This document shows positions 4,556 to 41,118 of a DNA stretch of 64,000 nt, one piece after another. Every line of letters starts with the position of its first letter. Position 1 is the first letter of the stretch. The DNA is from Chloroflexota bacterium. GTDB taxonomy: Bacteria; Chloroflexota; Limnocylindria; Limnocylindrales; CSP1-4. The stretch lies in the NCBI GenBank assembly GCA_040905225.1, contig JBBDRY010000110.1, forward strand, positions 26,395 through 90,394. Direction: 5' to 3'. Under the pieces are notes generated by a model. It worked only from the letters and a program-made list of their open reading frames with translations, ran no database searches and was not told the origin of the DNA. The position numbers were made by a program, and so were the translations under genes.

Positions 4556-6847
4556 ATGACTGAAAGCCCGGTCAGCCCGCTCGGCCAGCGCCTCCCAATG
4601 GTCGACGCGGTTGCCCGTGTCACGGGTGCGATGGACTACGCGCTCGACATCGAGCTTCCGGGCATGCTCCAAACGCGGATCCTGCGCAGCCCGCACGCCC
4701 ACGCCCGATTGGTCCGCATTGACGCGAGTCGCGCGGCCGCCCTCCGCGGCGTGACGGTCCTGACGCGCGACGACATCCTCGGCCGCGAGGACGTGAACCC
4801 CACTTTCGGCTTGTTCATCCGCGATCAGCCGCCCGTTGCCCTCGACAAGGTCCGCCACGTGGGCGACCCGGTCGCGGCCGTCGCCGCGCCGGACGACGCC
4901 GCGGCAGAGGAGGCGCTCGACCTGATCGAGGTCGAGTACGAGCCCTTGCCGGCGGTCTTCGACGTCGAAGCAGCTCTGGAGCCCGGGGCGCCGATCCTCC
5001 ACGAGGGGCCCCGATCGCTGGCCAGCCGCCGGCCGGACATCCTCGCCCGACAGCCCGGCTTCGAAGGCACGAACGTCATCCACCAGTTCATCCAGCGCAA
5101 GGGTGATGTCGATGCCGGCTTCGCGGGGGCCGACGAGGTGATCGAGCACACCTTCTACAGCCCACCCGTCCAGCACGTGCCGATGGAGCCGCATGTCGTG
5201 GTCGCGCGCTGGAGCGACAACCGCCTGACGCTGTGGGATTCGACCCAGGCGCCTAACTGGGTGCAGATCGAGCTGGCCAACCTGTTCAAGCTGTCGGCGT
5301 CGGACGTGCGCGTGATCGTCGGGACCCTCGGCGGGGGCTACGGCGGCAAGATCGACCCGTCAATCGAACCGATCGCCGCCTGGCTGGCGCGCAAGGCAAG
5401 ACGCCCGGTGCGCCTCGCGTTGAGGCGCGACGAGGAGTTCTACACGCACACCAAGCATGCGGCGCGGGTGCGCATCCGCACCGGGGCGAAGCGCGACGGC
5501 ACCCTCGTCGCCCACCAGGCGACGTGCTGGTACAACGGCGGCGCGTACGCCAAGGAGACGCCCGAGAAGATCACCCGCGGCTATGCATCGATGGGCCCGT
5601 ACCGCGTGCCCAACGTCCACGTCGACTCGTTCGGCGTGTACACGAATATCACGCCTTCCGCGGCCTTCCGCGGCTTCGGCATCCCGCAGGTCTCGTGGGC
5701 GCACGAGTCGCAGATGGACATCCTGGCCGACGCGCTCGGGCTCGATCCGCTCGAGCTTCGGCTGCGCAACGTCCTCAAAGTCGGGGACCAGTTCTCGACG
5801 GGTGAGACGATCACCGAGGACCTGCACTATCGCGAGCTGCTGAAGATTGCGGCGGAGAAGATCGGCTGGTCGGAGGGCGTCGGCCCGTTCCGGGAGGGCT
5901 CGAAGATCCGTGCCCGGGGGATCGCCACGATCATCAAGGGCATGAGCGCGTTCCCGTCGTCGGCGGTCGCCAAGCTCAACACCGACGGGTCGCTCAACGT
6001 GCTCACGGGCAGCGTCGAGATGGGCCAGGGAGCGCTCACGGCGCTGACGCAGATAGCGGCCGACGAGGCGACCCTGCCGATGAGCCGCGTTCGCGTGTCC
6101 ACACCGGATACCGCGGTGACGCCGTGGGATCAGATGTCGGCGGCGTCGCGCACGACGAACAACATGGGCAAGGCCATCCGTGGCGCGGTCGTCGACGTCA
6201 AGAAGCAGCTGCTCGAGATGGCGGCGCAGCGGTTGGAGATCTCAGTCGACGATCTCGATGTCGTAGCCGGAACGGTCCAGCCCAGGGGCTCTCCCGACAA
6301 GGCGCTGCCGTTCGCCGCCCTCCTTGGTCCGGCGCGGGTGGGCAATCTCCTCGGCCGTGGCTCGTACCAGGCCGTATCGCACCTCGACCTGGACGGCCAG
6401 GGGATCGGCTCCCCGCAGTGGCATCCGTGCGTCTGCGCGGCCGAGGTGGAGGTCGACGAGGAGACTGGTCGGACGACGATCCTCAAGATGCACATGGCGG
6501 TCTACGTGGGCAGGATGATCAATCCGCTCCAGTGCGAGCTCCAGGTCGAGGGCGCAGCGACGTTCGGCATCGGCCAGGCGCTGTTCGAGGAGATCCTCTG
6601 GGACGAGAGCGGCAACCTGACCAACCCCAATCTGTCCGACTACATGGTTCCCTCGATGCTCGACCTCCCGGCCGAATTCGGCGAGACGATCCTCGAAACC
6701 GACACGAACGAGGTGCACGGCATCGGCGAGACGGGCCTGCCGGCAGTCATGCCGGCGGTTGGCAACGCCGTCAGTCGGGCGATCGGCAAGCGCATCCCGA
6801 CTCTGCCGCTGACGCCCGAGAAAGTGCTGCGCGCCATATGGAGCTGA
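4556..6847 (+). CDS. xanthine dehydrogenase-family molybdopterin-binding large subunit (CoxL-like hydroxylase, set 1)
   Basis: ~765 aa. N-terminus LPMVDAVARVTG...LRSPHAHARL and active-site loop SAAFRGFGIPQ are XDH-type, not the CODH AYXCSFR motif. First ATG is 4556 (a TTG lies at 4511). Overlaps the next gene by 10 nt. Confidence 0.85.
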   Translation: MTESPVSPLGQRLPMVDAVARVTGAMDYALDIELPGMLQTRILRSPHAHARLVRIDASRAAALRGVTVLTRDDILGREDVNPTFGLFIRDQPPVALDKVRHVGDPVAAVAAPDDAAAEEALDLIEVEYEPLPAVFDVEAALEPGAPILHEGPRSLASRRPDILARQPGFEGTNVIHQFIQRKGDVDAGFAGADEVIEHTFYSPPVQHVPMEPHVVVARWSDNRLTLWDSTQAPNWVQIELANLFKLSASDVRVIVGTLGGGYGGKIDPSIEPIAAWLARKARRPVRLALRRDEEFYTHTKHAARVRIRTGAKRDGTLVAHQATCWYNGGAYAKETPEKITRGYASMGPYRVPNVHVDSFGVYTNITPSAAFRGFGIPQVSWAHESQMDILADALGLDPLELRLRNVLKVGDQFSTGETITEDLHYRELLKIAAEKIGWSEGVGPFREGSKIRARGIATIIKGMSAFPSSAVAKLNTDGSLNVLTGSVEMGQGALTALTQIAADEATLPMSRVRVSTPDTAVTPWDQMSAASRTTNNMGKAIRGAVVDVKKQLLEMAAQRLEISVDDLDVVAGTVQPRGSPDKALPFAALLGPARVGNLLGRGSYQAVSHLDLDGQGIGSPQWHPCVCAAEVEVDEETGRTTILKMHMAVYVGRMINPLQCELQVEGAATFGIGQALFEEILWDESGNLTNPNLSDYMVPSMLDLPAEFGETILETDTNEVHGIGETGLPAVMPAVGNAVSRAIGKRIPTLPLTPEKVLRAIWS

Positions 6848-7317
6848 TCGAGTTCGAGCTCAACGGCCGCCAGGAGGCTGTTGCCGCGCGCCCGGACGAG
6901 CTACTGCTCGACCTGCTGCGGCGGCAGTTCCACCTGTTCAGCGTCCGCGAGGCGTGCGGCATCGGCATCTGTGGCACCTGCACGGTCGTCGTCGATGGAC
7001 GCCAGGCGAGTGCGTGCCTCGTCCTCGCCGGGCAGGCGTCGGGTCGGTCGATCGAGACGGCGGAGGTACTGTCGGAAGACGGCACGCTGCATCCCATCCA
7101 GCAGGCGTTCATCGAGCACAACGCGTTCCAGTGCTCGTACTGCACGCCCGGCTTCCTCCTTGCGACGCGGGAGCTCCTGGCGACGAATCCTTCGCCGAGC
7201 GAGGACGAGATCCGTCAGTTCCTGGCCGGGAATATCTGTCGCTGCGGGAGCTACGTCAAGATCATCGAGGCCGTGGTCGATGCGGCCGGCCGGCTGCGCG
7301 CGCAGCCGCAGCGATGA
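6838..7317 (+). CDS. (2Fe-2S)-binding small subunit of molybdenum hydroxylase (CoxS-like, set 1)
   Basis: CGIGICGTCTV, CSYCTPGF and CRCGSYVKI motifs. The start sits inside the stop region of the large subunit. Confidence 0.85.
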   Translation: MELIEFELNGRQEAVAARPDELLLDLLRRQFHLFSVREACGIGICGTCTVVVDGRQASACLVLAGQASGRSIETAEVLSEDGTLHPIQQAFIEHNAFQCSYCTPGFLLATRELLATNPSPSEDEIRQFLAGNICRCGSYVKIIEAVVDAAGRLRAQPQR

Positions 7318-8150
7318 TGGCAGAGGTCGCCGACCGGACGGCAATCGCGTTCCGCCACCGATCAGCTGGCCGCGGCCGCGCGGTTGTCCTGATCCACGCG
7401 TTCCCGGTCGATGGGCGGCTCTACGACGTGCAGCTTTCCGCTGCCGAAGCCGGACGCCTGGCAGCCCGAGTAATCGCCGTCGATCTGCCCGGGTTCGGGC
7501 AGACACCTCTGCCGGACCCGGCACCGGACGTTCTGACTGTGGAGTTCCTTGCCGAGGCCGTCTGTGGCTGGATCGAGGCGGAGAGACTCGGTCCGGCGAT
7601 CGTGGGTGGCGTCGCCATCGGCGGTTACGTGGCGATCGAGCTGGCGGCTCGCCGGCCCGACCTCGTCGCGGGCCTGGTATTGATCGGTTGCAAGGCGGCG
7701 CCGGACAACCCAACGATGGCGCCGAAGCGCGAAGAGCTCGCCCAACTCGCGCTCGATCGAGGCGCCGCGGCCGTGGCCGATGAGCTCCACGCCCAGCCGC
7801 TCGGTCCGCACGCCGACGGCGCGGTGAAGGCTCGGATGCACGAGATGATCTCGTCGGCGGATCCACGCGCGATCGCGGCGCTGATCCGAGGAATCGCGCG
7901 GCGACCGGATCCAGCGCCGGTGCTGCCCGGGCTGGCCATGCCGTCCCTGGTGATCTGTGGCGAGAGGGACCCGTTCAGCCCGCTCGACGAGGCCAGGCGG
8001 GTCGCTCAGCTGATGCCGAACGCGGACCTTGTCATCATCAAGGGAGCAGGCCACATGGCCCCGCTGGAGGCTCCCATCGCCGTGAGCCGTGCGTTGGCAG
8101 GCTTCCTCGATCGACTGAACCAGAACCAAACACCAGGAGGAGCAACGTGA
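7314..8150 (+). CDS. alpha/beta hydrolase embedded in the Mo-hydroxylase operon
   Basis: 278 aa with HAFP...GFG...GGVAIGGY nucleophile-elbow context. ATGA overlap with coxS-like and GTGA overlap with coxG-like. Confidence 0.7.
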   Translation: MMAEVADRTAIAFRHRSAGRGRAVVLIHAFPVDGRLYDVQLSAAEAGRLAARVIAVDLPGFGQTPLPDPAPDVLTVEFLAEAVCGWIEAERLGPAIVGGVAIGGYVAIELAARRPDLVAGLVLIGCKAAPDNPTMAPKREELAQLALDRGAAAVADELHAQPLGPHADGAVKARMHEMISSADPRAIAALIRGIARRPDPAPVLPGLAMPSLVICGERDPFSPLDEARRVAQLMPNADLVIIKGAGHMAPLEAPIAVSRALAGFLDRLNQNQTPGGAT

Positions 8151-8668
8151 TCATCGACCAGAACGTGACCATCCCCGCACCGCCCGAGAAAGTCTGGGAC
8201 TTCATGATGGACGTGCCTGAGGTGAGCACTTGCGTCCCCGGCGTTGAAGGGTTCGCGCAGGTCTCACCCGACGTCTACAAGGGGATCCTGGGCATCAAGG
8301 TCGGCCCGATCGGTGTCCGGCTCGAGGGGCAGGTCACGTTGGTCGAGCAGGATCGCGACAACTGGCTGGCGCGGATGGATGTCGAAGCGACCGACCGGCG
8401 CATCCGCGGCGCAGTCAACGCCAAGGCGTGGATGAAGTTGACACCGCGGGAGGATGGCCAGACCGACGTCTTCATCCACACGGACGCGTCAATCTTCGGC
8501 AAGCTGGGCCAGTTCGGCCAGGCAGTGCTGCGCAAGAAGGCCGACCAGATGGTCGCCGAGTTCGCCGCGAACATGTCGCGCCGGCTGACCACGCCGCCTG
8601 CCGAAGCGGAAACGTTGGCCGAAGCGCCGGCCGAAACGTCCGCCGAAGCGCCCGCCGGCCAGTCATGA
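8147..8668 (+). CDS. coxG: CoxG-family (SRPBCC) Mo-hydroxylase accessory protein
   Basis: N-terminus MIIDQNVTIPAPPEKVWDFMMDVPEVSTCVPGVE is typical of CoxG. Ala/Glu-rich C-terminal tail. Confidence 0.7.
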   Translation: MIIDQNVTIPAPPEKVWDFMMDVPEVSTCVPGVEGFAQVSPDVYKGILGIKVGPIGVRLEGQVTLVEQDRDNWLARMDVEATDRRIRGAVNAKAWMKLTPREDGQTDVFIHTDASIFGKLGQFGQAVLRKKADQMVAEFAANMSRRLTTPPAEAETLAEAPAETSAEAPAGQS

Positions 8669-9696: not shown

Positions 9697-10017
9697 TCAG
9701 CGAACCGAGTAGTCGGACAGGATCTTCCTTGTCGGCCTGCCCTGAGCGTACTGAGCGGCAAGCTCGCGCACCCCGAGCATCAGCTCGCTGGCGGCATATG
9801 CATCGAGCGCCTCGCGGTCGCGCCAGGTGAGCAGGTAGTAGTGCGTGCCGGTCTCGAAATCGCCGAAGAAGCGGCCTTCGACGAAGCCCGGGAACCCGCC
9901 GATCTGCTCGATCGTGCGTCGCGCGATCGCCCGTGCGTCCTCGGGAGTCAGGTCGGGCGCCTGCCACTCGACGAGAGTCGAGATCGGCCCACCGTTGAGC
10001 TTGGGTGAGTCATCCAT
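9697..10017 (-). CDS. antibiotic-biosynthesis-monooxygenase (ABM/Dabb)-like small protein
   Basis: 106 aa ferredoxin-like ABM-type sequence. Overlaps the stop of the IDI-2 gene, so it is co-transcribed. Confidence 0.5.
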   Translation of the reverse strand: MDDSPKLNGGPISTLVEWQAPDLTPEDARAIARRTIEQIGGFPGFVEGRFFGDFETGTHYYLLTWRDREALDAYAASELMLGVRELAAQYAQGRPTRKILSDYSVR

Positions 10018-11188
10018 TCGCGTCCTCCTCCAGCTGTCTGATCCACTCGCGCGCCTCGCCAGTGACGACCCTGGCAGCGCGCCGCAGTGACGGTACGTCC
10101 CGGGACCCGGTCAGGTACATCGCCGCCACGAGGCCGCTCGCAAAGCGCTCGATCCATTCGTCGACGGCAGCATCGCCCGCCAGCGCGGCCTGGAGAAGCG
10201 GCCGCGCGACACCGACCGCGGTCGCGCCCATGGCAATCGCCTTCGCCGCGTCGAGGCCGGTGCGAACGCCGCCGGTGGCGATAACGGGCAGGCCCGAGCC
10301 ACTCGCGAGCGCAACGCTGACCAGCGTCGGGATCCCCCATGAGGCCAACAGCTCGCCGAGCAGCACTCCCCGGGAGTCGTGGGTCTGACGAGCGCGCGCG
10401 GCCTCGATCGCGGCGAAGCTGGTGCCGCCGCGGCCGCCGACGTCGAGCACCGCTACGCCCGCGCCGCGCAGCCGCACGGCCGTCGTTGCGGACACGCCTG
10501 CGCCAGTCTCTTTGGCGATCACCGGGACTGAAACGCGACCGGCGACCGCCTCGATCGCGGCCAGCCAGCCGCGGGCATCCGGTTGTCCCTCGGGTTGGAC
10601 GAGCTCCTGGACCGCGTTGAGGTGGATGGCCAGGGCATCGGCGCGGATCATCGCGATCAGCGCCTCGATCTCGGCCGGTTCCACCGCCGGTCGGTCTGCC
10701 TGGGGCACGAGCTGGGCGACACCGATGTTCGCGATCAGCAATGCAGTTGGCGCCGCCTCGCGCGCCGCGGCATACGTCCGCGCGAGCGCCGGCTCGATGA
10801 GCGCGGCACGTTGGCTACCGACGCCCATGGCGAGCCCGTGTCGCTCCGCCGCGCGCGCGAGCGTCGTATTGATGGTCTCGCCACCGGCGAATCCGCCGGT
10901 CATCGCGGCGATGACGAGCGGCAGGCGGAGGCGCTTCCCGAGGAGCTCTACCGAGGTATCGATATGCTCGGGTGCGGCCTCCGGCAGTGCCTCGTGCACC
11001 AGTTGGACGTCGTCGAATCCCGCCCGGCCACCACTGGGTAACTCCTCACCGGCGGCAAGTTCGACGTGTTCGCGCTTGCGCCGCTCGATCTGCGTCGTGC
11101 GCGCCTCGCGTTCAGCGTCGCCGGCACGAGGATCGAGCGTCGACGGCCGGTCCTCGGAAGTGGTCACGGCATACAATCGTATCCCCAC
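10010..11188 (-). CDS. fni: type 2 isopentenyl-diphosphate delta-isomerase (FMN-dependent IDI-2)
   Basis: ERRKREHVELA, AAMTGG, AIHLNAVQE, VIAKETGAG and IATGGVRTG align with the B. subtilis Fni pattern. Start uncertain; ~30 aa N-terminal extension in the ORF. Confidence 0.8.
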   Translation of the reverse strand: MGIRLYAVTTSEDRPSTLDPRAGDAEREARTTQIERRKREHVELAAGEELPSGGRAGFDDVQLVHEALPEAAPEHIDTSVELLGKRLRLPLVIAAMTGGFAGGETINTTLARAAERHGLAMGVGSQRAALIEPALARTYAAAREAAPTALLIANIGVAQLVPQADRPAVEPAEIEALIAMIRADALAIHLNAVQELVQPEGQPDARGWLAAIEAVAGRVSVPVIAKETGAGVSATTAVRLRGAGVAVLDVGGRGGTSFAAIEAARARQTHDSRGVLLGELLASWGIPTLVSVALASGSGLPVIATGGVRTGLDAAKAIAMGATAVGVARPLLQAALAGDAAVDEWIERFASGLVAAMYLTGSRDVPSLRRAARVVTGEAREWIRQLEEDANG

Positions 11189-11217
11189 CTACCCCGAGTC
11201 CCCGAGGAGAGTTTCCG

Positions 11218-12222
11218 ATGCCGGAGTTGCCTCGCGTCGCCCTGATCGTCACGGGCGGCACCATCGATTCCGTCGGCGTCGATCGGCTCGATCTGGCGTG
11301 GTACATCGAGGCTGCGAAGCGGCTTCCAGAAGGCGAGCTCCTCGATAGCCTGCCCGAGCTGTCGCGGGTCGCACAGGTCGCCGAGGTCCCCTTCCGGCGG
11401 ATCCCCAGCCAGGCCATAACCTTCCAGGACTGGATTGACCTCGTCCACCGAATCCACGAGACCTTCAGCGCCGACGAGGCGGACGGCATCGTGATCACCC
11501 ACGGGACGAACACCCTCGAGGAAACGGCCTACTTCCTCCACCTGACACTGAAGACCGACCGTCCAGTCGTCATCGTCGGCAGCATGCGACCGTCGTCGGG
11601 GCTGTCCGCCGACGGCTACCTCAACGTCCTGAACGCCGTCCGGGTCGCCGCCGACCCGCAGTCGCGTGGAATGGGCGTGCTGGTCGTGCTCAACGACACG
11701 ATCCACAGCGCGCGCGACGTCACCAAGACTGCGACTTATCGCCTGGAGGCGTTCCAGGGCAGGGACCTCGGCCCGCTGGGCTACTCCGACGCCGACGGCC
11801 GGGTTCTCTACTATCACCGGCCCGTTCGGCCGCACACGACCGCGACCGACTTCGACGTCGACGAGTTGGGCGCGGACATACCCCGTGTCGACCTCGTCGT
11901 CAGCTACGTCGGCGCCGACGGAAGCGCGATCGACGCCGCCGTGGCGGCCGGTGCTCGGGGGATCGTCTCGGCCGGGACGGGCGCGGGTCGGCCGACGCCG
12001 GGCGAGGATGAGGCCCTGGCGAGGGCGCGGGCGCAAGGAGTTGTCATCTGCCAGGGCACGCGAGTCGGCTCGGGTCGCACGGTGCAGAGCCCCAAGGCGC
12101 GCGAGCGCGGAGACATCGGCGCGGACAACCTCGTGCCCTGGAAGGCGCGCATCCTGCTCACCCTGGGTCTCGCGAAGACCTCCGACCCACAGGAGCTCCA
12201 GCGGCTCTTCGACAAGTACTAG
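11218..12222 (+). CDS. L-asparaginase (type II family)
   Basis: LIVTGGTIDS and GIVITHGTNTLEETAYFL match AnsB motifs. RBS-like GGAGAG precedes ATG 11218. Confidence 0.85.
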   Translation: MPELPRVALIVTGGTIDSVGVDRLDLAWYIEAAKRLPEGELLDSLPELSRVAQVAEVPFRRIPSQAITFQDWIDLVHRIHETFSADEADGIVITHGTNTLEETAYFLHLTLKTDRPVVIVGSMRPSSGLSADGYLNVLNAVRVAADPQSRGMGVLVVLNDTIHSARDVTKTATYRLEAFQGRDLGPLGYSDADGRVLYYHRPVRPHTTATDFDVDELGADIPRVDLVVSYVGADGSAIDAAVAAGARGIVSAGTGAGRPTPGEDEALARARAQGVVICQGTRVGSGRTVQSPKARERGDIGADNLVPWKARILLTLGLAKTSDPQELQRLFDKY

Positions 12223-13436
12223 CGGAGAGTCGCGAGAACCTCCAGCTCGGAGTCGCCGCGCGCTTCCTCTTCCAGGGCGAGCAGCTCGGCGCTTACCCAC
12301 ACGGTCCCGTCGAGGATGTGGCGCGCCGTTCGGCCAATGCGAACGCCGTCGATGACCACCTGGCCGTCGGCCTCGTGCGCGGTGACGAGGACGTCCATCG
12401 CGCCGTAGGGGTTGCCGATCCTGATCCGGTCTCGATCACGGCGCTGGGTCGCCGGCCGGGTAACTCGATGCACTAGCGTGCCGTCCGTGGCGGCCGCAGC
12501 GCCGATGCAGATCGCGCCGGTCACCTGGAGGGAGCGGTGGGCGGTCTGCATGCTCATCGATCGGACCAGTAGGTCGACGGCGTCGGCCGGGACTGCGTCG
12601 CCGGTTGTGGCGACGTACTCGGACGGCGGCGCAATCATCGCTACCTTGGGCAGCCCCGGGCTCTTGCTGAGCGCCACGTCGCGGGAGGGGACGATGCCCA
12701 TCCGCTCGGCCGCGATGGCTCGGATCTCCTCCAGCGTGTCGCACAGGCCGACGTTCGCCTCGATCTCGTCGGGCGCCTCGCTGCCCCGCGCGCCAACGTC
12801 CTCGGCAAGCACGAAGACGCATGGATTGCCGGCGTCGACGAGCGAAACGCGGACGGACCGGCCGTCGGCGAGCGTCATCTCTTCGTCGGGGCGACCAGTC
12901 GGCAGCAGCTTGCCGGTGACTGAGCCGGCCGGGTCGGTGAACTCGAGGTCCACTCGCGCACCGGTGCCGGGGACTCCGGGGATCGCGTAGTCGCCGTGGC
13001 GGACGGCGCGCCCGTGACGAACCGGGACGTGCGCGACGATGATCTTGCCGGTGTTCGTGTTGTGGATACGGACGATGGTCTCGCCCTCGACTGCGGGGAC
13101 AAGCCCAGCATCGATCGCGAACGGGCCGACGGCAGACGAAATGTTGCCGCAGTTACCGCCCCAGTCGACCAGCGGCGTCTTGATGTCAACCTGGGCGAAC
13201 GTGTAGTCGATGTCGGCGTCGCCGCGGCTGGGCGGTCCGATGATCGCCGCCTTGCTCGTGTTCGGCGTAGCGCCAGCCAGTCCGTTGATCTGTCGCGCGT
13301 CCGGGCTTCCGAACACGTCCCGCAGGATGGGTTCGATCCTCTCGCGAGCGTGCGGCAGATTCTTGGCGAGAAAGAAGATGCCGCGGCTCGTGCCGCCGCG
13401 CAGGATCGAGATCGGCAGCGGACGGACGTCGCTCAT
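12219..13436 (-). CDS. PrpF/AcnD-accessory-family isomerase (3-methylitaconate isomerase or 4-oxalomesaconate tautomerase-like)
   Basis: ISILRGGTSRGIFF N-terminus and ~405 aa length. Start chosen at MSDVRPL; the ORF track start 13520 adds an Arg-rich extension. Confidence 0.7.
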   Translation of the reverse strand: MSDVRPLPISILRGGTSRGIFFLAKNLPHARERIEPILRDVFGSPDARQINGLAGATPNTSKAAIIGPPSRGDADIDYTFAQVDIKTPLVDWGGNCGNISSAVGPFAIDAGLVPAVEGETIVRIHNTNTGKIIVAHVPVRHGRAVRHGDYAIPGVPGTGARVDLEFTDPAGSVTGKLLPTGRPDEEMTLADGRSVRVSLVDAGNPCVFVLAEDVGARGSEAPDEIEANVGLCDTLEEIRAIAAERMGIVPSRDVALSKSPGLPKVAMIAPPSEYVATTGDAVPADAVDLLVRSMSMQTAHRSLQVTGAICIGAAAATDGTLVHRVTRPATQRRDRDRIRIGNPYGAMDVLVTAHEADGQVVIDGVRIGRTARHILDGTVWVSAELLALEEEARGDSELEVLATLR

Positions 13437-14338
13437 TGGTTCCGATTCTCCACCTTGGCGTAACGCTCCGCCAGCACGCGGTATTCGCCGAGCCCGACGA
13501 GGCGCTGGCGCTCGTCCCACGGAAGCAGGCGATCGGCCAATGAGCCGGACGTGCCGTCGCGGCGCAGCACCGCGAGGCCTTCCTGGACGGCGCGCGCCGC
13601 GAGACGCAGCGCGGTGTTGGCGAACAGGACGATGCGGTAACCCAATGCGCCGAGCTCCGCGGCCGAGAGCTCCGGCGTCCGGCCACCCTCCACCACGTTT
13701 GCGAGCAGTGGCGCGGGGATCTCCGCCGGCAGCCGCTGGAGCACCTCGCGCGATGGCGGCGCCTCGACGAAGACGACGTCAGCGCCCGCCTCCGCGTAAG
13801 CCCGCCCACGCTCGATCGCCTCGTCCACCCCGAGGCTGGCCAGCGCGTCCGTACGGGCGATGACGACGAGATCCTGGTCCCTGCGTGCGTCGAGCACGGC
13901 CGCCAGCTTGCCCAGGAATTCCACAGCCGGGATGACCTCGGTTCCCTCGAAGTGGCCGCAATGCTTGGGGAAGACCTGATCCTCGATCTGCACACCGGCC
14001 ACGCCGGCCCGCTCAAACGCACGCATGGCACGCGCGGCGTTCAGCGCGTTGCCGTATCCGGTATCGAGATCGGCGACCACCGGCACGTCGACGGCGGCAA
14101 CGATGCGCTCGACCTGGGTGAGCATCTCGGTCGCGGTCAGGAGCCCGATGTCGGGCACGCCGAGCTGCGCGTTCGCGATGCCGGCACCCGTGGCATAGAC
14201 CGCCTCGAAGCCGGCCTCGACCACGATTCGCGCGGTCAAAGCGTCGGCGCAGCCGACCAGCAGTAGCGGATCGCCTGGGCCTTCGATGAGTGACCGCAGC
14301 TGCACCGTTGGCGAGTCAGCGCTGGTGGACCCGGACAT
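13433..14338 (-). CDS. isocitrate lyase/PEP mutase-family lyase (methylisocitrate or dimethylmalate lyase, or oxaloacetate decarboxylase-like)
   Basis: KHCGH signature, DTGYGN motif, 301 aa. 4-nt overlap with the PrpF-like gene. Confidence 0.75.
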   Translation of the reverse strand: MSGSTSADSPTVQLRSLIEGPGDPLLLVGCADALTARIVVEAGFEAVYATGAGIANAQLGVPDIGLLTATEMLTQVERIVAAVDVPVVADLDTGYGNALNAARAMRAFERAGVAGVQIEDQVFPKHCGHFEGTEVIPAVEFLGKLAAVLDARRDQDLVVIARTDALASLGVDEAIERGRAYAEAGADVVFVEAPPSREVLQRLPAEIPAPLLANVVEGGRTPELSAAELGALGYRIVLFANTALRLAARAVQEGLAVLRRDGTSGSLADRLLPWDERQRLVGLGEYRVLAERYAKVENRNQ

Positions 14339-14344
14339 AGGTCC

Positions 14345-14941
14345 TCAGCGCTCGAGCAGCCGGCGCGCGAGCTCATCGAAGCGCTCGGCAGGCACGAAGA
14401 CGACCCCGCCGTCGTCGGCGATGACGACGTCGCCCGGGCGGACCTGGACCCCACAGATCGCGACCTGTTCTCCGAACGCGGCCGCCTCCAGCCGCCAGCG
14501 ACCGGTGATCGGCGTCCGTGTGGATGCCCAGCACGGGAAGCCGAGGCGGGCGAGGCCCTCGATGTCACGAACCGCTCCGTCTACAACGGCGCCGACGATC
14601 CCTGCGCGTCGCAGCGCATCGGCGGCCTCGGACCCGAGCACGGACACGTCCGGCCGGGGACTCTGGACGACCATCACGTCACCCGGCCGCGCGACCTCGA
14701 CGAGTCGCTTGTTGCCGAGCCTTCCCTCCGGGTCCTCCCGCCTCAGCGCGCCCGGCTCGCGCCGTTCTGGAAGGTAGCGAACTGTCGTCGCCGGTCCGAT
14801 GAGCCGCGACCCAGCGTCCGTGGGCGCCAGCCGGCTGGCCGGGACGGCGAGTCGGTAGCCCTCGCGCTCGAGCAGATCGCTGAATTCGGCCGAAAGGTCA
14901 GGAACCGTGCGCAGTCTTTCGACGACAGCCTGGTCGAGCAC
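14345..14941 (-). CDS. RraA-family protein (HMG/CHA aldolase-like)
   Basis: 198 aa. GAVVDGAVRDIEGLARLGFPCWA is the RraA/MenG-family core. Confidence 0.7.
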   Translation of the reverse strand: MLDQAVVERLRTVPDLSAEFSDLLEREGYRLAVPASRLAPTDAGSRLIGPATTVRYLPERREPGALRREDPEGRLGNKRLVEVARPGDVMVVQSPRPDVSVLGSEAADALRRAGIVGAVVDGAVRDIEGLARLGFPCWASTRTPITGRWRLEAAAFGEQVAICGVQVRPGDVVIADDGGVVFVPAERFDELARRLLER

Positions 14942-14947
14942 GTCGGT

Positions 14948-15811
14948 CTAGAGGAGCCGCGCGGCCGCGTCGAGCTGGTCGAGCTCGAGCAGCGTCGGGA
15001 AGAGGTACAGGATGTCCAGACCGGCTTCGCGGTACTCTCCGACCTGGTCGCGCAGCGCCGCATCGTCACCGGTGTGGGCCATCTCGAGGAACGGCTTGCG
15101 CAAGGTGCCGTAATAGTGCTTGAGGTTGCTCTCGGCCTGATCCAGCCGGTTGGGATCGTCGGTCGCCGCGAAATAGGCGAGGCCGCCGATCGGGAGATCC
15201 GGGCGGCCGGCCGCGCGGTACGCAGCGCGTATCTCAGGGATCTTCGCGCGCATCGCCGCGACCCCGGCGACGCCGAAGATGTAGCCGTCGCCGAGCGTCA
15301 CGGCGCGCTTCAGCGCGTCCGGCTGGTAGCCGCCGACCCGGATCGGCGGCCGCGGGCGCTGGACGGGCGGTGGTCCGAGGACGCCCGATTCGTCGCCGTG
15401 CTCGATGGAGCGTCGCCATGCCTCGTCGATGCGGCGGAGCTGGCGCTCGAAGCGGCGGCCGCGCCCGGCCATGTCGCTACCGAGGGCGGTGTAGTCCTGC
15501 TCGCGCCCGCCGAGCCCGACACCCAGCTCGAATCGCCCCCCGGAGATGGCATCGATTGCTGCCGACTGCATCGCCACGAGCCCGGCATCCCGCGCAGGCA
15601 GGATCAGGACCGTGGTCACCAGCCGCACGCGGCGGGTGAGGGGAGCCACAGCAGCCAGGGTTATGAGCGGGTCCCAGGTGTCGTGGTCCGGACGGTCGTG
15701 CGCCGAGACCGCCGCGAACCCGGCCTCGTCGGCGCGACGGGCCCACTCGAGGACGAGGGGCGGATCAACGGCAGTGCCGAGGTACCCGGGAAGCCCGATG
15801 CCAAGCTCCAA
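14948..15811 (-). CDS. LLM-class F420-dependent oxidoreductase
   Basis: Luciferase-like monooxygenase fold, 287 aa. First gene of the minus-strand operon LLM, RraA-like, ICL/PEPM, PrpF-like. Confidence 0.6.
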   Translation of the reverse strand: MELGIGLPGYLGTAVDPPLVLEWARRADEAGFAAVSAHDRPDHDTWDPLITLAAVAPLTRRVRLVTTVLILPARDAGLVAMQSAAIDAISGGRFELGVGLGGREQDYTALGSDMAGRGRRFERQLRRIDEAWRRSIEHGDESGVLGPPPVQRPRPPIRVGGYQPDALKRAVTLGDGYIFGVAGVAAMRAKIPEIRAAYRAAGRPDLPIGGLAYFAATDDPNRLDQAESNLKHYYGTLRKPFLEMAHTGDDAALRDQVGEYREAGLDILYLFPTLLELDQLDAAARLL

Positions 15812-19975: not shown

Positions 19976-19976
19976 C

Positions 19977-32667: not shown

Positions 32668-32692
32668 GCCGCAACGCGGGAGGTCGTCACGG

Positions 32693-33565: not shown

Positions 33566-34399
33566 TTAGAACGCCCTCGGGAAGACGGCCAGCAGGCCGC
33601 CATCGCAGGGCAGGTCGACGCCCGTAATGAACGACGATTCGGCCGACGCGAGGAAGAGCGCCGCGTTCGCCTGATCGATCGGGCGCCCCCAGCGTCCGAG
33701 CGGGATACCGCGCGGCTCGGAAGCCCGCACCGTGGACGCGAAGTCCTCGTCGGCGACGCCGACCGGCGATCCGGTCTGGGTCGGCGTCAACGTGTTGACT
33801 CGGATGCCGTGCTCGGCCAGCTCCATGGCCGCCGCCCGGGTCAGGTTGTAGACGCCGGCCTTGGCCACTGCGTAGGGGAACTTGCCCCGGATCCCGCGCA
33901 GCCCGCTCGTCGATCCCATGTTTACGATCGACCCGCCGCGGCCCTGCGCGATCATCTGCCGCGCGGCGTGCTTGGAACACAGGAACGTCGCCTTGAGCGT
34001 GACGCCGTGAATCATCTCCCACTGCTCGAGGGTGCAGTCGACGAGTGAGGCGTTGACCGTCGCGGCGACGTTGTTGACCAGCACGTCGAGACCACCGAAC
34101 GCCTCCACCACCGAGGCGACGAGTTGCTCCACGGCCGCCTCGTCTGTCACATCGGCGACGAACGCGGCCGCTTGACCGCCGGCGTTCCCGATCGCTGCGA
34201 CCACGCGCTCGGCCCGCTCCTCGTTCAGCTCCACGACGGCAACCGCGCTGCCCTCCGCCGCAAAGAGCTCGGCCATGGCGCGGCCGATGTTCTGGCCGGC
34301 GCCGGTGATGATCGAGACCTTGCCCGCCAGCCGTCCGCGGCCGATCGCCGTTCCTGGCTCCGCCGTCACATCTTGACGCGTGCGGTCGATGGCATCCAC
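33566..34399 (-). CDS. SDR-family oxidoreductase
   Basis: TGAGQNIGRA (TGxxxGxG) and YAVAKAG (YxxxK). Confidence 0.8.
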   Translation of the reverse strand: MDAIDRTRQDVTAEPGTAIGRGRLAGKVSIITGAGQNIGRAMAELFAAEGSAVAVVELNEERAERVVAAIGNAGGQAAAFVADVTDEAAVEQLVASVVEAFGGLDVLVNNVAATVNASLVDCTLEQWEMIHGVTLKATFLCSKHAARQMIAQGRGGSIVNMGSTSGLRGIRGKFPYAVAKAGVYNLTRAAAMELAEHGIRVNTLTPTQTGSPVGVADEDFASTVRASEPRGIPLGRWGRPIDQANAALFLASAESSFITGVDLPCDGGLLAVFPRAF

Positions 34400-35214
34400 G
34401 AGGTGAGTCGCCGGTCGATGATCTGGACGAGCTTCACCGCGAACATCGCCACGATCACGATCACGAGCAGCACGGCCAGCACGCCGGCAGCGTCGAAGCG
34501 TTTGCCCTGGTTCATGACGACCGCGCCCAGGCCGACCACTGCGATGAACATCTCGCCGTTGATCATGCCCTTGACGGCGCGCCCGGAGCCCAGCCTGAGG
34601 CCGGCCATGATCAGCGGCAGCGCGGCGGGCAGGATGATCCGCCAGAACATCCTGCGGTCATTGGCGCCGAAGCTCCGGCCCATCTCGATCAGCGAGGGCG
34701 GCACCGAGCGGATCGCAGTCTGTGTATTCACGATGATGATGAAGATCGTGTACATGACGACAACCGCGATCGTCGTCTCGCGCGTGTTGGTCGCACCGAA
34801 CGCGGCGAAGAAGATCGGCGCGAACACGAGGGATGGCGCGGTCAGCAGCGAGTACACGTAGACGTCGAGCGCCGAACCGATCTTCGGGTAGGCGCCCATG
34901 AGCGTGCCGATGACGACTCCGCCAATGGCGGAGATCCCGAAGCCGATTGAGAGGTTGATCAGGCTCTGGACGAGGTTGTTCAGGATCACGCCCTTGGCGA
35001 GATCGCCGTTGGGAGCAGTCAGCTCGAAAAGGCGCACGATCACGTCCGAAAGCGGTGGGAAGAACACCACGTCCCAGGCGCGACCCACGACTTCCCAGGC
35101 GATGGCGCCGATGAGCAGCGCCACGAACCCGGAGCCGAGCCCGATCGAGGCTGGCGAGAACCGTCGCTTCTGGGCGACGGCGCGCCGAGCCTGGGTCGCG
35201 GCGGCGGTGCTCAT
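34366..35214 (-). CDS. ABC transporter permease (NitT/TauT family)
   Basis: 282 aa, 6 TM, EAA-like loop. 4-nt overlap with the ATPase gene. Confidence 0.75.
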   Translation of the reverse strand: MSTAAATQARRAVAQKRRFSPASIGLGSGFVALLIGAIAWEVVGRAWDVVFFPPLSDVIVRLFELTAPNGDLAKGVILNNLVQSLINLSIGFGISAIGGVVIGTLMGAYPKIGSALDVYVYSLLTAPSLVFAPIFFAAFGATNTRETTIAVVVMYTIFIIIVNTQTAIRSVPPSLIEMGRSFGANDRRMFWRIILPAALPLIMAGLRLGSGRAVKGMINGEMFIAVVGLGAVVMNQGKRFDAAGVLAVLLVIVIVAMFAVKLVQIIDRRLTSWMPSTARVKM

Positions 35215-36044
35215 GCGGCCCCGGTCGAGGTTGTGGTCGGCGGCGCGTGCTTGCCCTGCGCCTGGTGGCGGCGGGACACCTGCATGTCACGCAGTCTCGA
35301 CCACAGGTGCTGGGTGATCGCCGTGAACTCCGGCGAGCCTTCGACGCTGTCCACGTTCGTCGAGCGCGGGCGCTTGAGCGGCACCTCGACGATCTCCTCG
35401 ATCCGGCCCGGGCGCGCACTCATCAGCACCACTCGGTCGCCGAGCAGCACGGCTTCCTCCATCGAGTGCGTGATGAAGACGACGGTCGTCCGCTCCTTCT
35501 CCCAGATCGCCAGCAGCTCCTCCTGGAGCAGGCGTCGGGTCTGCTCGTCGAGCGCGCCGAACGGCTCATCCATGAGCAGCACCTTGGGCCTTACGGCGAG
35601 GGCGCGGGCGAGACCGACACGCTGCTGCATGCCGCCCGATAGCTCCATCGGGTAGCGCTTTTCGAAGCCCGTGAGGCCGACGATCTCGATCAGCTCGTTC
35701 GCCCGTTCATAACGCTTCTGCCGCGGAACGCGGGCGATCTCCAGCCCGAAGGCGACGTTGTCGAGGACGTTCATCCACGGCAGCAGGGCGAAGCTCTGGA
35801 ACACCATCGCTCGCTCGGGCCCGGGGCCGCGGACGGCTTTGCCCTCGATCGTGATCTCGCCCTCGTCCCAGTGCAGGAGCCCAGCGATCAGACGCAGGAG
35901 CGTGGTCTTGCCGCAGCCCGACGGCCCGAGGATCGTCAGGAATTCGTTGTCGCGGACGCTCAGGTCCACGTCCTTGAGGGCGAGCACCGGCTCGGATTGA
36001 CGCTTGCCGGGGAAGAGCTTGCTGACGCCGACTATCTCGATCAA
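35211..36044 (-). CDS. ABC transporter ATP-binding protein (NitT/TauT family)
   Basis: Walker A GPSGCGKTT, signature LSGGMQQR, Walker B LLMDEP. Confidence 0.85.
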   Translation of the reverse strand: MIEIVGVSKLFPGKRQSEPVLALKDVDLSVRDNEFLTILGPSGCGKTTLLRLIAGLLHWDEGEITIEGKAVRGPGPERAMVFQSFALLPWMNVLDNVAFGLEIARVPRQKRYERANELIEIVGLTGFEKRYPMELSGGMQQRVGLARALAVRPKVLLMDEPFGALDEQTRRLLQEELLAIWEKERTTVVFITHSMEEAVLLGDRVVLMSARPGRIEEIVEVPLKRPRSTNVDSVEGSPEFTAITQHLWSRLRDMQVSRRHQAQGKHAPPTTTSTGAA

Positions 36045-36054
36045 CTGCCCGCTC

Positions 36055-36783
36055 CTAGCCTGCCAGGACCGACTCGTTCGCCCAGGGAGCCACGCGGCGC
36101 TCCACCCATCGGGCCGCCGAGATGAGGATCAGCGACTCGACGACGATCAGGATGACGACGCCGTAGAGCGTCGGCCCGTCGAAGCGGCCGCGGGCATTGA
36201 TGATCAGGTTTCCGATACCGACGGCGAACATCAGCAGCTCGACGATCACCATGCCGGTGATCGCGCGGCCGACGCCCAGGCGGACGCCGGTCATGATCGC
36301 CGGCAATGCGCCCGGGAGAAGGATCTTGCGCCAGATCGTGCGCTCGTTGGCCAGGAAGCTGGTCGACATCTCGATCAAGGACGGATCCACCTGGCGCACT
36401 CCGGCGCGGGCGTTGACGATCAGCATCGGGATCGCGAAGACGATGACGAGGAGCACGCGCGAGGCGAGGGTGAAACCCAAGGCCATCAGGAAGATGGGGA
36501 TGAGCGCCGCCGTCGGCGTGACCAGCATGATGTTGAGATAGGGGTCCATGAACTTCTCCAGCCGCTCGAAGCGCGCCGCCGCGAGGCCCAGGGGAAGACC
36601 GAGGACGACGGACACGGCGAAGCCGACCACCAGCGCCTGGTTGCTGTCGAGGAACGCCTTCCAGACCACCGGTTCGAAGAGCAGCTGCACGGTCCGGACG
36701 ACGGTTTCCGAGAACCCCGGGATGATCAGGCTGCGGGAGGTGGCCCCATACCACTCCCACAGCACGGCGATCACCACGAGCAC
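36055..36783 (-). CDS. ABC transporter permease (NitT/TauT family), second membrane component
   Basis: 242 aa from GTG 36783. The in-frame upstream region carries the G13 run but no start codon. Confidence 0.7.
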   Translation of the reverse strand: MLVVIAVLWEWYGATSRSLIIPGFSETVVRTVQLLFEPVVWKAFLDSNQALVVGFAVSVVLGLPLGLAAARFERLEKFMDPYLNIMLVTPTAALIPIFLMALGFTLASRVLLVIVFAIPMLIVNARAGVRQVDPSLIEMSTSFLANERTIWRKILLPGALPAIMTGVRLGVGRAITGMVIVELLMFAVGIGNLIINARGRFDGPTLYGVVILIVVESLILISAARWVERRVAPWANESVLAG

Positions 36784-36840
36784 GATCAGGCGGTAGGTCC
36801 AGGGCGACTCGGTGATCGCGCTGATCGCGTTGAAGCGGGG

Positions 36841-36869
36841 GCGGGCCTGAGGCCCGCCCCCCCCCCCCC
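36841..36869. repeat. perfect 7-bp hairpin (GCGGGCC-TGA-GGCCCGC) fused to a 13-nt poly-C (poly-G on the mRNA strand)
   Basis: Read directly at 36841-36869, between the SBP stop (36885) and the permease start (36783). Confidence 0.8.
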
Positions 36870-36884
36870 ATGCCTACTCGGCTG

Positions 36885-37997
36885 CTACTGGCGACCGAGC
36901 TCATCGAGGACCGTGTTCAGGAACGACAGGTCAGCCCACTCCTCGAGTGCGAAGACCTTGTCGACCGTACCGGTGCCTTCTGGTCCGAAGAAGTCGGCGG
37001 TGTAGTTGAGTCCTTCCTCGGTGACGCCGCCGTTGACGTCGAACATGCCGAGGTCGACGTACCGCGCCGCGGCCTGGTCGATCGTGTCCGGGTTGATCGC
37101 GTCGGGCACCTGCTCCTCCGCGACCGTCCTCAGGTACGCCGCATCGGCGGAGACCAATCGGAACTGCTGGATGACTGCGCGCACCACGTCGGTGACCGAC
37201 TGCGGATTCAGCGCCGCCCAGTCGCCGTTGACGTAGATGGACGTCGTCTTCAGGTCGGGCAGGTCGGCCGAGAAGCTCGACAGGAGGTGGTAGCGATCGC
37301 CCGCCTCGTTGTCGATCGTGATCGAGTCGCCCAGCTCGAGGGGGCTGGCGTCGATCTGGTCGGCCAGCAGGGCGGCGACGCGGTTCGGCGAGCCCTCGAT
37401 GAAGATCTCCTGTGGCGTCGTGCCCGCGCAGTTGACGTTGATGTAGTTGCGGACCATTGCCGTGCTGACGGCGCCGTCGCTGTGCAGGGCAAGTCGCAGG
37501 CCAGCGAGACCGGCGCACTCCGTGACTTCGGTGGGGGCGTAGAGCGTCCACTCGTTGGCCACGCGGTCGACGACGACCTTGATGTTCGCGCCCTGCTCGA
37601 TCGCCGCGAGCACGGCGTTGTTGGCGCCCGACCCGAAGGCGAACTGGCCCTGCGCCACACCCTCGGCGACGAGCTCTGACTGGGCCAGGATCGGCGTCTT
37701 GATGTCATAGCCGTGGTTGGCGTTGAGGTCGGCGATCGCCGCCAGGAACGGCGCGCTTGACAGGCCGACCGAGGTAAAGCCGATCCAGAAGTCCTTGCTA
37801 TTGGTGATCGCTGGGGGTGCCGGCGTGACAACAGGTGCCGGCGTGACAACAGGTGCCGGCGTGACAACAGGTGCCGGCGTGACGGCCGGTGGGGCCGCGG
37901 TCGGCGCCCGAGTTGGCGCGGCCGCGCTACACGCGGCCAGCAGGAGCGCGCCCACGACCAGCACGGCCGTGGAGCGTCGGACGATCGAAAGTTGCAT
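36885..37997 (-). CDS. ABC transporter substrate-binding lipoprotein (NMT1/THI5-SsuA/TauA-like)
   Basis: MQLSIVRRSTAVLVVGALLLAAC lipobox, then a (TPAPVV)x4 linker. ~370 aa. Confidence 0.75.
   Translation of the reverse strand: MQLSIVRRSTAVLVVGALLLAACSAAAPTRAPTAAPPAVTPAPVVTPAPVVTPAPVVTPAPPAITNSKDFWIGFTSVGLSSAPFLAAIADLNANHGYDIKTPILAQSELVAEGVAQGQFAFGSGANNAVLAAIEQGANIKVVVDRVANEWTLYAPTEVTECAGLAGLRLALHSDGAVSTAMVRNYINVNCAGTTPQEIFIEGSPNRVAALLADQIDASPLELGDSITIDNEAGDRYHLLSSFSADLPDLKTTSIYVNGDWAALNPQSVTDVVRAVIQQFRLVSADAAYLRTVAEEQVPDAINPDTIDQAAARYVDLGMFDVNGGVTEEGLNYTADFFGPEGTGTVDKVFALEEWADLSFLNTVLDELGRQ
37816..37887. repeat. 18-bp tandem repeat x4 (GGTGCCGGCGTGACAACA) encoding the TPAPVV linker of the SBP
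   Basis: Three perfect copies plus one degenerate copy, read directly. Confidence 0.9.
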
Positions 37998-38098
37998 GCC
38001 TATGTCCTCCAGTGGTTCCCGAACGACGTGTTTCGTGTGGCCTTGTCTCAACGAGCTCCTCCTCTAATTTGCCCGATCGCTCTCCTCGTTTTCCGGGT

Positions 38099-38737
38099 TC
38101 ACCCAGCCGGCGGCGCGGGTGCGCCGTCGCCTCTGCTGGTCTCGTTTGAGTCTCCACCGCTTGCGTCGCGCGCGCGGTGACCGCCCCCGTCACTCATCAG
38201 TCGCTGCCTGGCGTCCATGACAGCGTCGAGGATCTTCACGTAGCTCCCGCAGCGGCACAGGTTGCCCCCCAGATATGCGCTCGCCTGATCACGGTCCGCC
38301 TGGGGCTCCTCGTCCAGAAGGGCCTTGGTGGCGACCACGAAACCCGGCGTGCAGTAAGAACACTGGAACCCAGTGTGTTCGACGAATGCGTCCTGGACCG
38401 GGTGGAGCTCGCCGGCCGGGCCAAGCAAACCCTCGACCGTCACGATCTCTCGACCCTCGGCCTGCATTGCGAGCATCAGACAGCCTGACACGATGCGGTC
38501 GTCGACGAGCACCGTGCAGGCGCCACACATCCCGACCCCGCAGCCCTCCCGGATGTCGATCAGGCCGACACGGTTGCGCAGGGCGTCCAGGAGGGTCTCC
38601 TGCGTGCGGACGCGAACCTGATGCTCCATGCCATTTACGCGCAGGACGAGGGTGACCCACTCCGCGTCTGGGTCCGGCGCCTCGGGGAGTGACGGGAAGG
38701 AGGGCGCCGGGGCGCTAAGGAGGTCTTGCTCCATCAC
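38099..38737 (-). CDS. (2Fe-2S)-binding small subunit (CoxS-like, set 3) with N- and C-terminal extensions
   Basis: CGVGMCGACTV, CSYCTPGF and CRCGSYVKI motifs. 212 aa. 4-nt overlap with the large subunit. Confidence 0.8.
   Translation of the reverse strand: MMEQDLLSAPAPSFPSLPEAPDPDAEWVTLVLRVNGMEHQVRVRTQETLLDALRNRVGLIDIREGCGVGMCGACTVLVDDRIVSGCLMLAMQAEGREIVTVEGLLGPAGELHPVQDAFVEHTGFQCSYCTPGFVVATKALLDEEPQADRDQASAYLGGNLCRCGSYVKILDAVMDARQRLMSDGGGHRARDASGGDSNETSRGDGAPAPPAG

Positions 38738-41118: not shown

Follow-up and report, generated by a model that had tools for sequence, protein, structure and literature searches.

A single FAD subunit gene beside three molybdenum hydroxylase L/S pairs in a catabolic island of soil Chloroflexota: a candidate shared flavoprotein

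Molybdenum hydroxylases of the xanthine dehydrogenase (XDH) family are treated as fixed units of a large subunit (L), a [2Fe-2S] small subunit (S) and a flavin adenine dinucleotide (FAD) subunit (M), with subunits paired by gene neighbourhood. Here we describe a 64-kb stretch of one contig (JBBDRY010000110.1) of the Chloroflexota (Candidatus Limnocylindria) metagenome-assembled genome (MAG) GCA_040905225.1, hereafter the window, which carries three L/S pairs (sets 1 to 3) and only one M gene (M1). Judging by gene orders in related genomes, this M once stood at the head of an M-L3-S3 operon and was later orphaned, and it probably serves several of the three enzymes. Specifically, we lean somewhat towards a reading in which one flavoprotein, together with a CoxG quinone shuttle, would act in trans as the common electron exit of the island's hydroxylases. 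M would assemble in trans with the L/S modules, electrons would pass from Mo through two [2Fe-2S] clusters to FAD, and quinone would be brought to the FAD site by CoxG. Comparative evidence makes it quite likely that M is used by L3/S3, its ancestral partner, and fairly probable that L1/S1, which is paralogous to L3/S3, uses it too; with L2/S2, a paralogue at greater distance, the prospect falls just short of even. All counts given for the window are limited to it, and its genes, in DNA of about 68% G+C, were called from codon-position G+C and Pfam matches (Table 1).

When all six frames of the window were searched with an M profile, one match was returned (E 6e-134), and no fragments or remnants of lost M genes were found in the window. 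The encoded protein has a single Cys and no 4Fe-4S insertion. Its gene adjoins none of the three L genes, and there is no FAD subunit for each L/S pair. The initial annotation had described three L/S pairs with one FAD subunit, ordered L-S-hydrolase-G-M, S-L, and L-S on the other strand; Pfam, the profile search and the gene calls bear this out, and its description of the sequence is correct in every particular, its interpretation being right in part.

The ancestry of M1 can be read from its relatives. A scan of species-representative genomes with M1, using peptide patterns whose reach is limited to close relatives of M1, gave 80 loci. In 57 of these an L gene lies directly downstream (M-L or M-L-S), and L3 is the best match of that L in 57 of 57. 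Ten others have an L or S upstream, eight have an L or S within 5 kb and three lie at contig ends. A solitary M occurs in only two loci (L014 and L015), which hold the two closest relatives of M1 (84% identity) and have no L or S within 8 kb. M1 shares 59-75% identity with M genes that stand immediately upstream of L3-type L genes in other genomes; for M-L-S operons in which L matches L3 at 68-71%, the figure is 63-66%. It falls to 55% with the M of L030, an L-S-M operon with an L1-like L, and to 40% where the M belongs to an S-M-L operon. Neighbour-joining places the clade of solitary M genes (window, L094, L014 and L015) inside the M-L3-S3 clade, beside L016. A cognate FAD subunit had been proposed for set 1 alone; this does not hold, as the relatives of M nearly always sit directly before L3-type L genes and, in close relatives, the L1 operons are without an M of their own. 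Indeed, because M1 is closer to the M of L3 operons (59-75% against 55%) while L1 is closer to the L of L030 (63%) than to L3 (53%), M is not the co-evolved partner of L1.

The fate of the L3 operon can be followed in the same way. Orthologues of L3 at 63-72% identity stand in M-L-S operons, and in those at 68-71% M overlaps L. Locus L025 has the order UbiD-amidohydrolase-M-L3 (72%)-S3-NMT1-type ATP-binding cassette (ABC) transporter-maleate isomerase-like gene, and because its genes after M-L3-S3 match those downstream of the window's L3, the latter is taken as a true orthologue. The closest L3 relatives (82-85%) have L-S only, as in the window, and one of them has an M (84%) about 46 kb off on the same contig (L015 against L004). 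These orders indicate that the M-L3-S3 operon was broken here: M stayed by CoxG, and L3-S3, on the opposite strand at a distance of about 30 kb, now head an NMT1-type ABC-transporter operon. A FAD subunit fused to or upstream of L3, as the long open reading frame (ORF) at 38734-42717 might suggest, was rejected, its upstream part being antisense to hydantoinase A and giving no Pfam match.

M now lies behind the operon of set 1. L1, S1, the hydrolase and CoxG are translationally coupled, and an 81-nt spacer then leads to M; the L1-S1-hydrolase-CoxG-M junction is reproduced in L011, an independent Logan assembly that was used to cross-check the junctions of the window. L010 has L1-S1-hydrolase-CoxG-UbiX and no M. 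Where L1 is 93% identical (L008), L1-S1-hydrolase-asparaginase-CoxG is followed by two divergent genes and then by M-L3type-S-UbiD-amidohydrolase, and L016 has the same order with UbiX replacing the two divergent genes, the L1 of these two loci being 87-93% identical to that of the window. The position of M after CoxG is the preserved left half of an old CoxG-...-M-L3-S3 layout, and in L094, L174, L016, L023, L027 and L036 a CoxG gene likewise lies shortly before M, either next to it or at a remove of one or two genes. In the molybdenum carbon monoxide dehydrogenase (CODH), CoxG acts as a menaquinone shuttle, docking on CoxM/CoxL and feeding the FAD site, and this CoxG association is also reported for other members of the family (PMC12202499). 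Because of this role, CoxG and M are best read as an electron-exit module and not as a maturation function, and by analogy the CoxG of the window is likely the quinone shuttle partner of the FAD subunit. Unlike its membrane-anchored counterpart in Mycobacterium smegmatis, it has no transmembrane helix by hydrophobicity, and its tail is rich in Ala, Pro and Glu. The initial annotation had placed the maturation genes coxG, coxD and coxE 50 kb apart; the distance stands, as the CoxD/CoxE pair lies 53 kb from coxG (and in L005 this pair is found near L3-S3), while the casting of coxG as a maturation gene does not agree with its quinone-shuttle role.

The CoxG-M spacer also contains a 20-bp perfect palindrome, TACCGTTGTACTCAACGGTA, at 8709-8728, which is unique in the window (0.01 chance matches expected) and is not conserved in relatives. 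On both grounds it was ruled out as a shared operator; it may be an operator nonetheless, in which case M would have its own regulated promoter. The surroundings of M yielded neither a sigma-70 promoter nor an intrinsic terminator.

Set 2 tells of a further loss. In the sister MAG (L006, L2 80% identical) the order is S-L followed by a major facilitator superfamily (MFS) transporter, in full synteny with the window, whereas the orthologous locus of L007 (60% identity) reads luciferase-like / S-M-L-MFS, and L001 is likewise S-M-L. A survey of metagenome loci found L2 relatives as S-M-L at 12 loci and as S-L at four. Because the orthologous loci elsewhere are S-M-L, M was cleanly removed from set 2 in this lineage, and the S-L arrangement of the L2 type has arisen more than once (L095, L099 and L115). 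Three loci deserve mention for their linkage. L094 carries, on one strand, CoxG (78%), an M of the M1 type (84%), S2 (77%) and L2 (77%); L174 repeats the window's layout of CoxG-...-M-module-S2-L2; and L095 has L3-S3-S2-L2. The module in question is a 12-kb segment that occupies the place held by L3-S3 in relatives L016 and L008, and comprises an ABM-like ORF, a type 2 isopentenyl diphosphate (IPP) isomerase, asparaginase, PrpF-like and PrpB/ICL-like proteins, an RraA-like aldolase, an F420/LLM oxidoreductase, S2, L2, the MFS transporter and a thiamine diphosphate (ThDP) enzyme. Two candidates were discarded: the M-sized ORF at 14948-15811, divergent from S2, is a luciferase-like/F420 oxidoreductase and not a FAD gene, and L103 is no case of an L2 sharing an M1-type M, as its L2 has an M fragment of its own upstream.

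The three pairs themselves are complete members of the XDH family. L1, L2 and L3 all show the architecture Ald_Xan_dh_C + MoCoBD_1 + MoCoBD_2 (PF01315 + PF02738 + PF20256; E 1e-23 to 1e-76), the hammerhead domain (PF01315) being present in each, and their starts match exact proteins among public calls (P0241, P0121 and P0001, respectively). S1, S2 and S3 each consist of Fer2 and Fer2_2, with both [2Fe-2S] motifs complete (CX4CX2CXnC and CX2CXnCXC) and all eight cluster Cys kept. S2 and L2 join by an ATGA stop/start overlap with no M in between, and L3 and S3 by a GTGA overlap on the minus strand. The active-site Arg loop and, near the C-terminus, the catalytic Glu are kept in L1-L3 (motifs GIGET and MAGEL). 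The L1 loop AAFRGFGIPQ lies at residue 385 of the 778-residue ORF that begins at 4511, or residue 370 of the 763-residue protein; the L3 loop GAFRGYGISQ lies at residue 369; and the L2 loop, PPAGHVRSPGEVQ, lies at residue 404 of the 796-residue ORF that begins at 16386, or residue 378 of the 770-residue protein. In an alignment with PDB entries, GHVRSPG of L2 falls opposite GAYRAPG (KdhL), NAMRAPG (PaoC), GAMRGHG (HcrA) and GVAYACSFR (mycobacterial CoxL, 8uem), and its Glu-motif residues align with the catalytic Glu of HcrA, KdhL, PaoC and CoxL. By these motifs the loops of L1 and L3 are of the XDH/AOR type, and that of L2 is of a different type, xxRxPG, like KdhL and PaoC. The residue after GGG(Y/F)G(G/A)K is I, C and G in the three large subunits; the bovine XDH sequence has Glu there (GGGFGGKE).

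A motif search of L1-L3 found neither of the CODH loops AYRCSFR (form I, with the Cu-binding Cys) and AYRGAGR (form II). Form I CoxL models were missed by a wide span (TIGR02416 228-283 bits against a cut-off of 991; NF040766 215-312 against 950), as were those of 4-hydroxybenzoyl-CoA reductase (TIGR03194 400-540 against 995; for M, TIGR03195 111 against 405) and PaoC (NF041671 265-281 against 1180), and the best scores of L1-L3 with other NCBIfam models were 365-481 for XdhA (cut-off 780) and 371-421 for PucD (cut-off 784). On this evidence L1, L2 and L3 classify as XDH-family hydroxylases outside every curated NCBIfam, and not as CO dehydrogenases. The loops AFRGFG and AFRGYG, the separate loop of L2 and the lack of CODH signatures had all been noted at the outset and are upheld, and the active-site alignment proposed as a check, run with PaoC and CoxL included, brought out no CODH motif. 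As a side observation, several L2 homologues are labelled 'carbon-monoxide dehydrogenase large subunit' by JGI despite a loop of the GHVRSPG type. Moreover, an L1 homologue of 943 residues (P0276, 72% identity) carries Fer2_2 and is an L-S fusion.

These genes are intact and under purifying selection, the lone M no less than the three L/S pairs. The ratio of nonsynonymous to synonymous substitution rates (dN/dS) against relatives is 0.11-0.12 for M, 0.16 for L2, 0.13 for S2, 0.10-0.15 for L3, 0.18-0.22 for S3 and 0.08-0.20 for L1, or 0.08-0.22 over M, L1-L3 and S1-S3 together, values that are qualitative only because dS is near saturation (0.5-1.5). No clade-specific deletions were found in M-less L or S proteins compared with M-bearing orthologues. 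It is very improbable that the M-less pairs are decaying remnants without active enzyme: their ORFs are intact, the active-site Arg and Glu are kept, the eight cluster Cys are present, L/S translational coupling is conserved, and dN/dS stands at 0.10-0.22 against relatives at 71-86% identity. Some decay does occur in the island, since a neighbouring UbiD gene is frameshifted. This decarboxylase gene is split on the minus strand at 2879-4317 into overlapping ORFs (2879-3763 and 3640-4317); L011 shows the split too, and the orthologue in L008 is intact at 480 residues.

How, then, might the M-less pairs discharge their electrons? In other genomes all three enzyme types are found with the usual three subunits (M-L3-S3, S-M-L2 and L1-like-S-M). 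Sharing in trans seems the most economical account because two of the three M genes have been lost here, and the survivor has been unhooked from its partner yet kept. Two L genes with one M are a recurring design. L-M-L-S operons in L041 (5570-11748) and L064 (5599-11693), in Actinomycetota and Acidimicrobiia MAGs, combine an L1-like and an L3-like L with one M and one S, and are preceded by two UbiD genes. Going further, one may tentatively picture a modular XDH enzyme, in which a CoxM-like flavoprotein and CoxG would dock interchangeably on three substrate-specific Mo/[2Fe-2S] modules, including L2/S2, whose ancestral M is about 40% identical; we consider this somewhat doubtful. Several points, besides the qualitative nature of the selection estimates, weigh against sharing. 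The case for it consists wholly of gene content and synteny. The view is of 64 kb of one MAG contig, and since XDH-family loci are usually numerous in soil Chloroflexota, other M genes may be present. Identity between M1 and the M normally used by L2-type enzymes is only about 40%, and no shift of S2/L2 towards L3/S3-type residues was found (own-type at 11 of 12 discriminating sites in S, with one variable, and at 45 of 59 in L), nor any shift of M1 towards residues of the S-M-L type (own-type at 15 of 16, like controls). Finally, adjacency says little about partnership in the M1 clade, because the M of L014 and L015 is solitary.

Two other accounts share some of this evidence. The M-less pairs might be FAD-less two-subunit enzymes that pass electrons from the distal [2Fe-2S] cluster of S to a ferredoxin, cytochrome or quinone, in the manner of Desulfovibrio gigas aldehyde oxidoreductase or the IorAB/NicAB-type enzymes. 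FAD-less members of the XDH family exist; the arrangement of L2-S2 and L3-S3 without an adjacent M is stable, being found in at least three related genomes; and the repeated origin of L2-type S-L loci, the distance of M1 from L2-type M and the want of S2/L2 adaptation to M1 all fit. We nonetheless regard it as unlikely, for no ferredoxin or cytochrome gene was seen among the scanned ORFs of the window or the called genes of related loci with precomputed Pfam matches, no structural segment has been lost from the L and S of M-less clades, the solitary M is kept under purifying selection and so needs a user, and an M1-type gene directly precedes S2-L2 in L094. The initial annotation had suggested that sets 2 and 3 may share M or use other acceptors; the idea of sharing accords with comparative genomics, and the analogies with IorAB and PaoABC are countered by the hammerhead domain of L2 and its S-M-L orthologues. 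Alternatively, each pair might have its own FAD subunit elsewhere in the genome, and the apparent economy would be an artefact of a partial view of an incomplete MAG. Only 64 kb were examined, the survey patterns detect only close relatives of M1, and a non-adjacent M is known from Thermomicrobium roseum, 3.4 kb upstream of L-S. Yet M is embedded in the orthologous operons (S-M-L and M-L-S) and is here excised cleanly, so that a compensating copy would require extra events, and the recurrent linkage of M1-type genes with S2-L2 (window, L174 and L094) favours this M as the one in use; this account, too, we think improbable.

Table 1. Positions of the hydroxylase genes and neighbouring features, counted from the first letter of the window
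Feature	Position	Strand	Basis and remarks
L1 large subunit, 763 aa	4556..6847	+	Pfam; loop AAFRGFG; catalytic-Glu motif HGIGETG; P0241
S1 [2Fe-2S] small subunit, 159 aa	6838..7317	+	Pfam, Cys motifs; start overlaps L1 stop; also called in L011
Alpha/beta hydrolase, PcaD-like	7314..8150	+	Pfam, NCBIfam; kept in L1 operons of relatives
CoxG-type SRPBCC protein	8147..8668	+	Pfam
M, FAD subunit, 298 aa	8750..9646 (alternative start 8714)	+	Pfam FAD_binding_5 + CO_deh_flav_C
12-kb module between M and UbiD-amidohydrolase	9697..21785		Pfam, NCBIfam; synteny L006, L014, L174 vs L016, L008
S2 [2Fe-2S] small subunit, 160 aa	15985..16467	+	Pfam, Cys motifs
L2 large subunit, 770 aa	16464..18776	+	Pfam; loop GHVRSPG; Glu motif AKMAGE; P0121
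MFS transporter	18773..19975	+	Pfam; coupled to L2; kept downstream of L2 orthologues
UbiD decarboxylase and allantoinase/dihydroorotase-like cyclic amidohydrolase	21860..24846	+	Pfam, NCBIfam; pair directly after M-L3-S3 in relatives
NMT1-type ABC transporter and short-chain dehydrogenase/reductase (SDR)	33566..38051	-	Pfam; downstream of L3-S3; syntenic with L025
S3 [2Fe-2S] small subunit, 212 aa, N- and C-terminal extensions	38099..38737	-	Pfam, Cys motifs
L3 large subunit, 794 aa	38734..41118	-	Pfam; loop GAFRGYG; Glu motif HGIGETS; P0001; heads its operon
Hydantoinase A	41305..43359	+	Divergent from L3
UbiX-type flavin prenyltransferase	59551..60165	+	Pfam; cofactor supply for island UbiD decarboxylases
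CoxD-like AAA ATPase	61684-62568	+	Pfam
CoxE-like VWA protein (VWA_CoxE)	~62565-63842	+	Pfam

Among characterised enzymes, the best solved-structure match of L1, L2 and L3 is HcrCAB of Thauera aromatica (1rm6; E 1.7e-107, 4.8e-76 and 5.9e-110, respectively), which likewise has a three-domain L, a two-cluster S and a FAD subunit. It differs in the loop of HcrA (GAMRGHG) and in the 4Fe-4S insertion of its beta subunit, for which the window's M has no counterpart, having one Cys; the organism and gene context of the window are, moreover, of aerobic type. KdhLMS (7dqx), QorMSL (1t3q) and nicotinate dehydrogenase (3hrd) belong to the same family (E 1e-57 to 1e-78), and the GAYRAPG loop of KdhL matches the GHVRSPG type of L2. 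These N-heterocycle hydroxylases resemble those of the window in their catabolic surroundings, the window having decarboxylases, amidohydrolases and a maleate-isomerase-like gene, but none is close enough for a substrate to be read across, and the window has one M for three L/S pairs. On pAO1, kdhL is also separate from kdhMS. PaoC has a loop (NAMRAPG) resembling that of L2, and PaoABC has a FAD subunit, PaoB. IorAB, NicAB and NdhAB share with the window an L and S without an adjacent M. The IorB-type large subunit is without a hammerhead domain and uses cytochrome c or another non-flavin partner, whereas L1-L3 have the hammerhead, the orthologues of L2 and L3 carry an ordinary M, and no cytochrome domain or gene was seen among the scanned ORFs of the window. 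The CODH CoxMSL has the same subunit types, and the window has homologues of CoxG, CoxD and CoxE, but CoxMSL differs in its AYRCSFR/AYACSFR loop with the Cu-binding Cys and in gene order, as the window's CoxG does in being without a membrane helix. The pairing of CoxG with M fits the quinone-shuttle model of the Mo-Cu CODH (PMC12202499). A parallel to sharing itself is offered by the multicomponent Rieske oxygenases, in which a reductase/ferredoxin encoded once passes electrons to several substrate-specific catalytic components from different loci. These systems are analogous and not homologous, being of unrelated families with the opposite electron flow, and the sharing demonstrated there by experiment is here deduced.

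The surroundings of the three enzymes bear on what they might do. In many relatives the same genes recur around them, namely UbiD and UbiX, the cyclic amidohydrolase, asparaginase, PrpF-like isomerase, PrpB/ICL-like lyase and RraA-like aldolase, together with bicupin, maleate-isomerase-like and isochorismatase-like proteins, hydantoinase A/B, a CoA transferase and transporters. This set points to successive hydroxylation, decarboxylation, ring hydrolysis and deamidation, as in the catabolism of aromatic or N-heterocyclic carboxylates. The region is best explained as belonging to a catabolic island that is conserved in soil Chloroflexota and probably serves to break down acids of this kind. No NCBIfam equivalog was reached and no characterised homologue is close enough to name the substrate, and a search of the literature on UbiD with Mo hydroxylase, dipicolinate, quinolinate and isonicotinate found no matching cluster; the dipicolinate catabolism of Alcaligenes was set aside as a model, as it does not depend on Mo. 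The best cultured homologues, about 50% identical, lie in a plasmid cluster of Arthrobacter crystallopoietes and in a cluster of Thermomicrobium roseum. The former (L012, plasmid pLDW-10) holds the best cultured homologue of L3 (50% identity) in an M-L-S cluster that also includes asparaginase, an SRPBCC protein, a CoA ligase, an NADPH:quinone oxidoreductase, XdhC, a PaaI thioesterase and the tricarballylate dehydrogenase TcuA, a gene set that we take to resemble the isonicotinate/citrazinate pathway of Mycobacterium sp. INA1.

Some further features of the island are recorded here. The type 2 IPP isomerase (TIGR02151, above cut-off) and a conserved ABM-like ORF of 106 residues occupy 9697-11188 (minus strand), and in relatives L017, L019 and L021 this isomerase is the divergent neighbour of UbiX, which suggests a dedicated supply of dimethylallyl phosphate for the prenylated flavin mononucleotide of three or four UbiD enzymes. 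Genes for a tautomerase, a dihydroorotate-dehydrogenase-like and an orotate-phosphoribosyltransferase-like protein form a trio at 56393-58422 (plus strand) that is found beside hydroxylase clusters in L004, L005 and L010. In L023, L027 and L036 the dihydroorotate-dehydrogenase-like gene stands without the other two shortly before M, and in L025 a PyrE-like gene is found beside L3-S3. Inside the island at 25928-26977 (minus strand) there is a GmrSD_N/DUF262 gene, normally a restriction-endonuclease domain, which L006 and L025 also keep inside the island. Over 32000-34000, G+C dips to 0.62 (against about 0.68) between the genes for the maleate-isomerase-like protein and the SDR, where a matrixin-like ORF (32146-32667) and an ORF without a family match (32573-33253) lie; this segment may be a foreign insertion. 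The cluster at 41305-48445 (plus strand) encodes hydantoinase A, a hydantoinase B with a C-terminal acetone-carboxylase-gamma-like domain, a family III CoA transferase, a protein with only the citrate-synthase C-terminal domain and an alpha/beta hydrolase, and it is conserved, standing divergent from L3 in the window and adjoining the S-M-L2 operon in L007.

Adjacency evidently misleads in this region, where the only FAD gene lies by an L/S pair with which it did not evolve, and the other two pairs are now without the FAD genes that they once had. The island also illustrates coxL-like genes of abundant soil Chloroflexota as catabolic hydroxylases and not CO dehydrogenases. If one M serves several modules, care will be needed with enzyme counts and subunit assignments in MAG-based reconstructions, heterologous expression of such L/S pairs would fail without the trans-encoded M, and the interface between L/S and M would be more permissive than has been assumed. 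Modular docking, if true, would be the first subunit sharing between paralogous molybdenum hydroxylases, and the L-M-L-S operons of other phyla would be its second manifestation.

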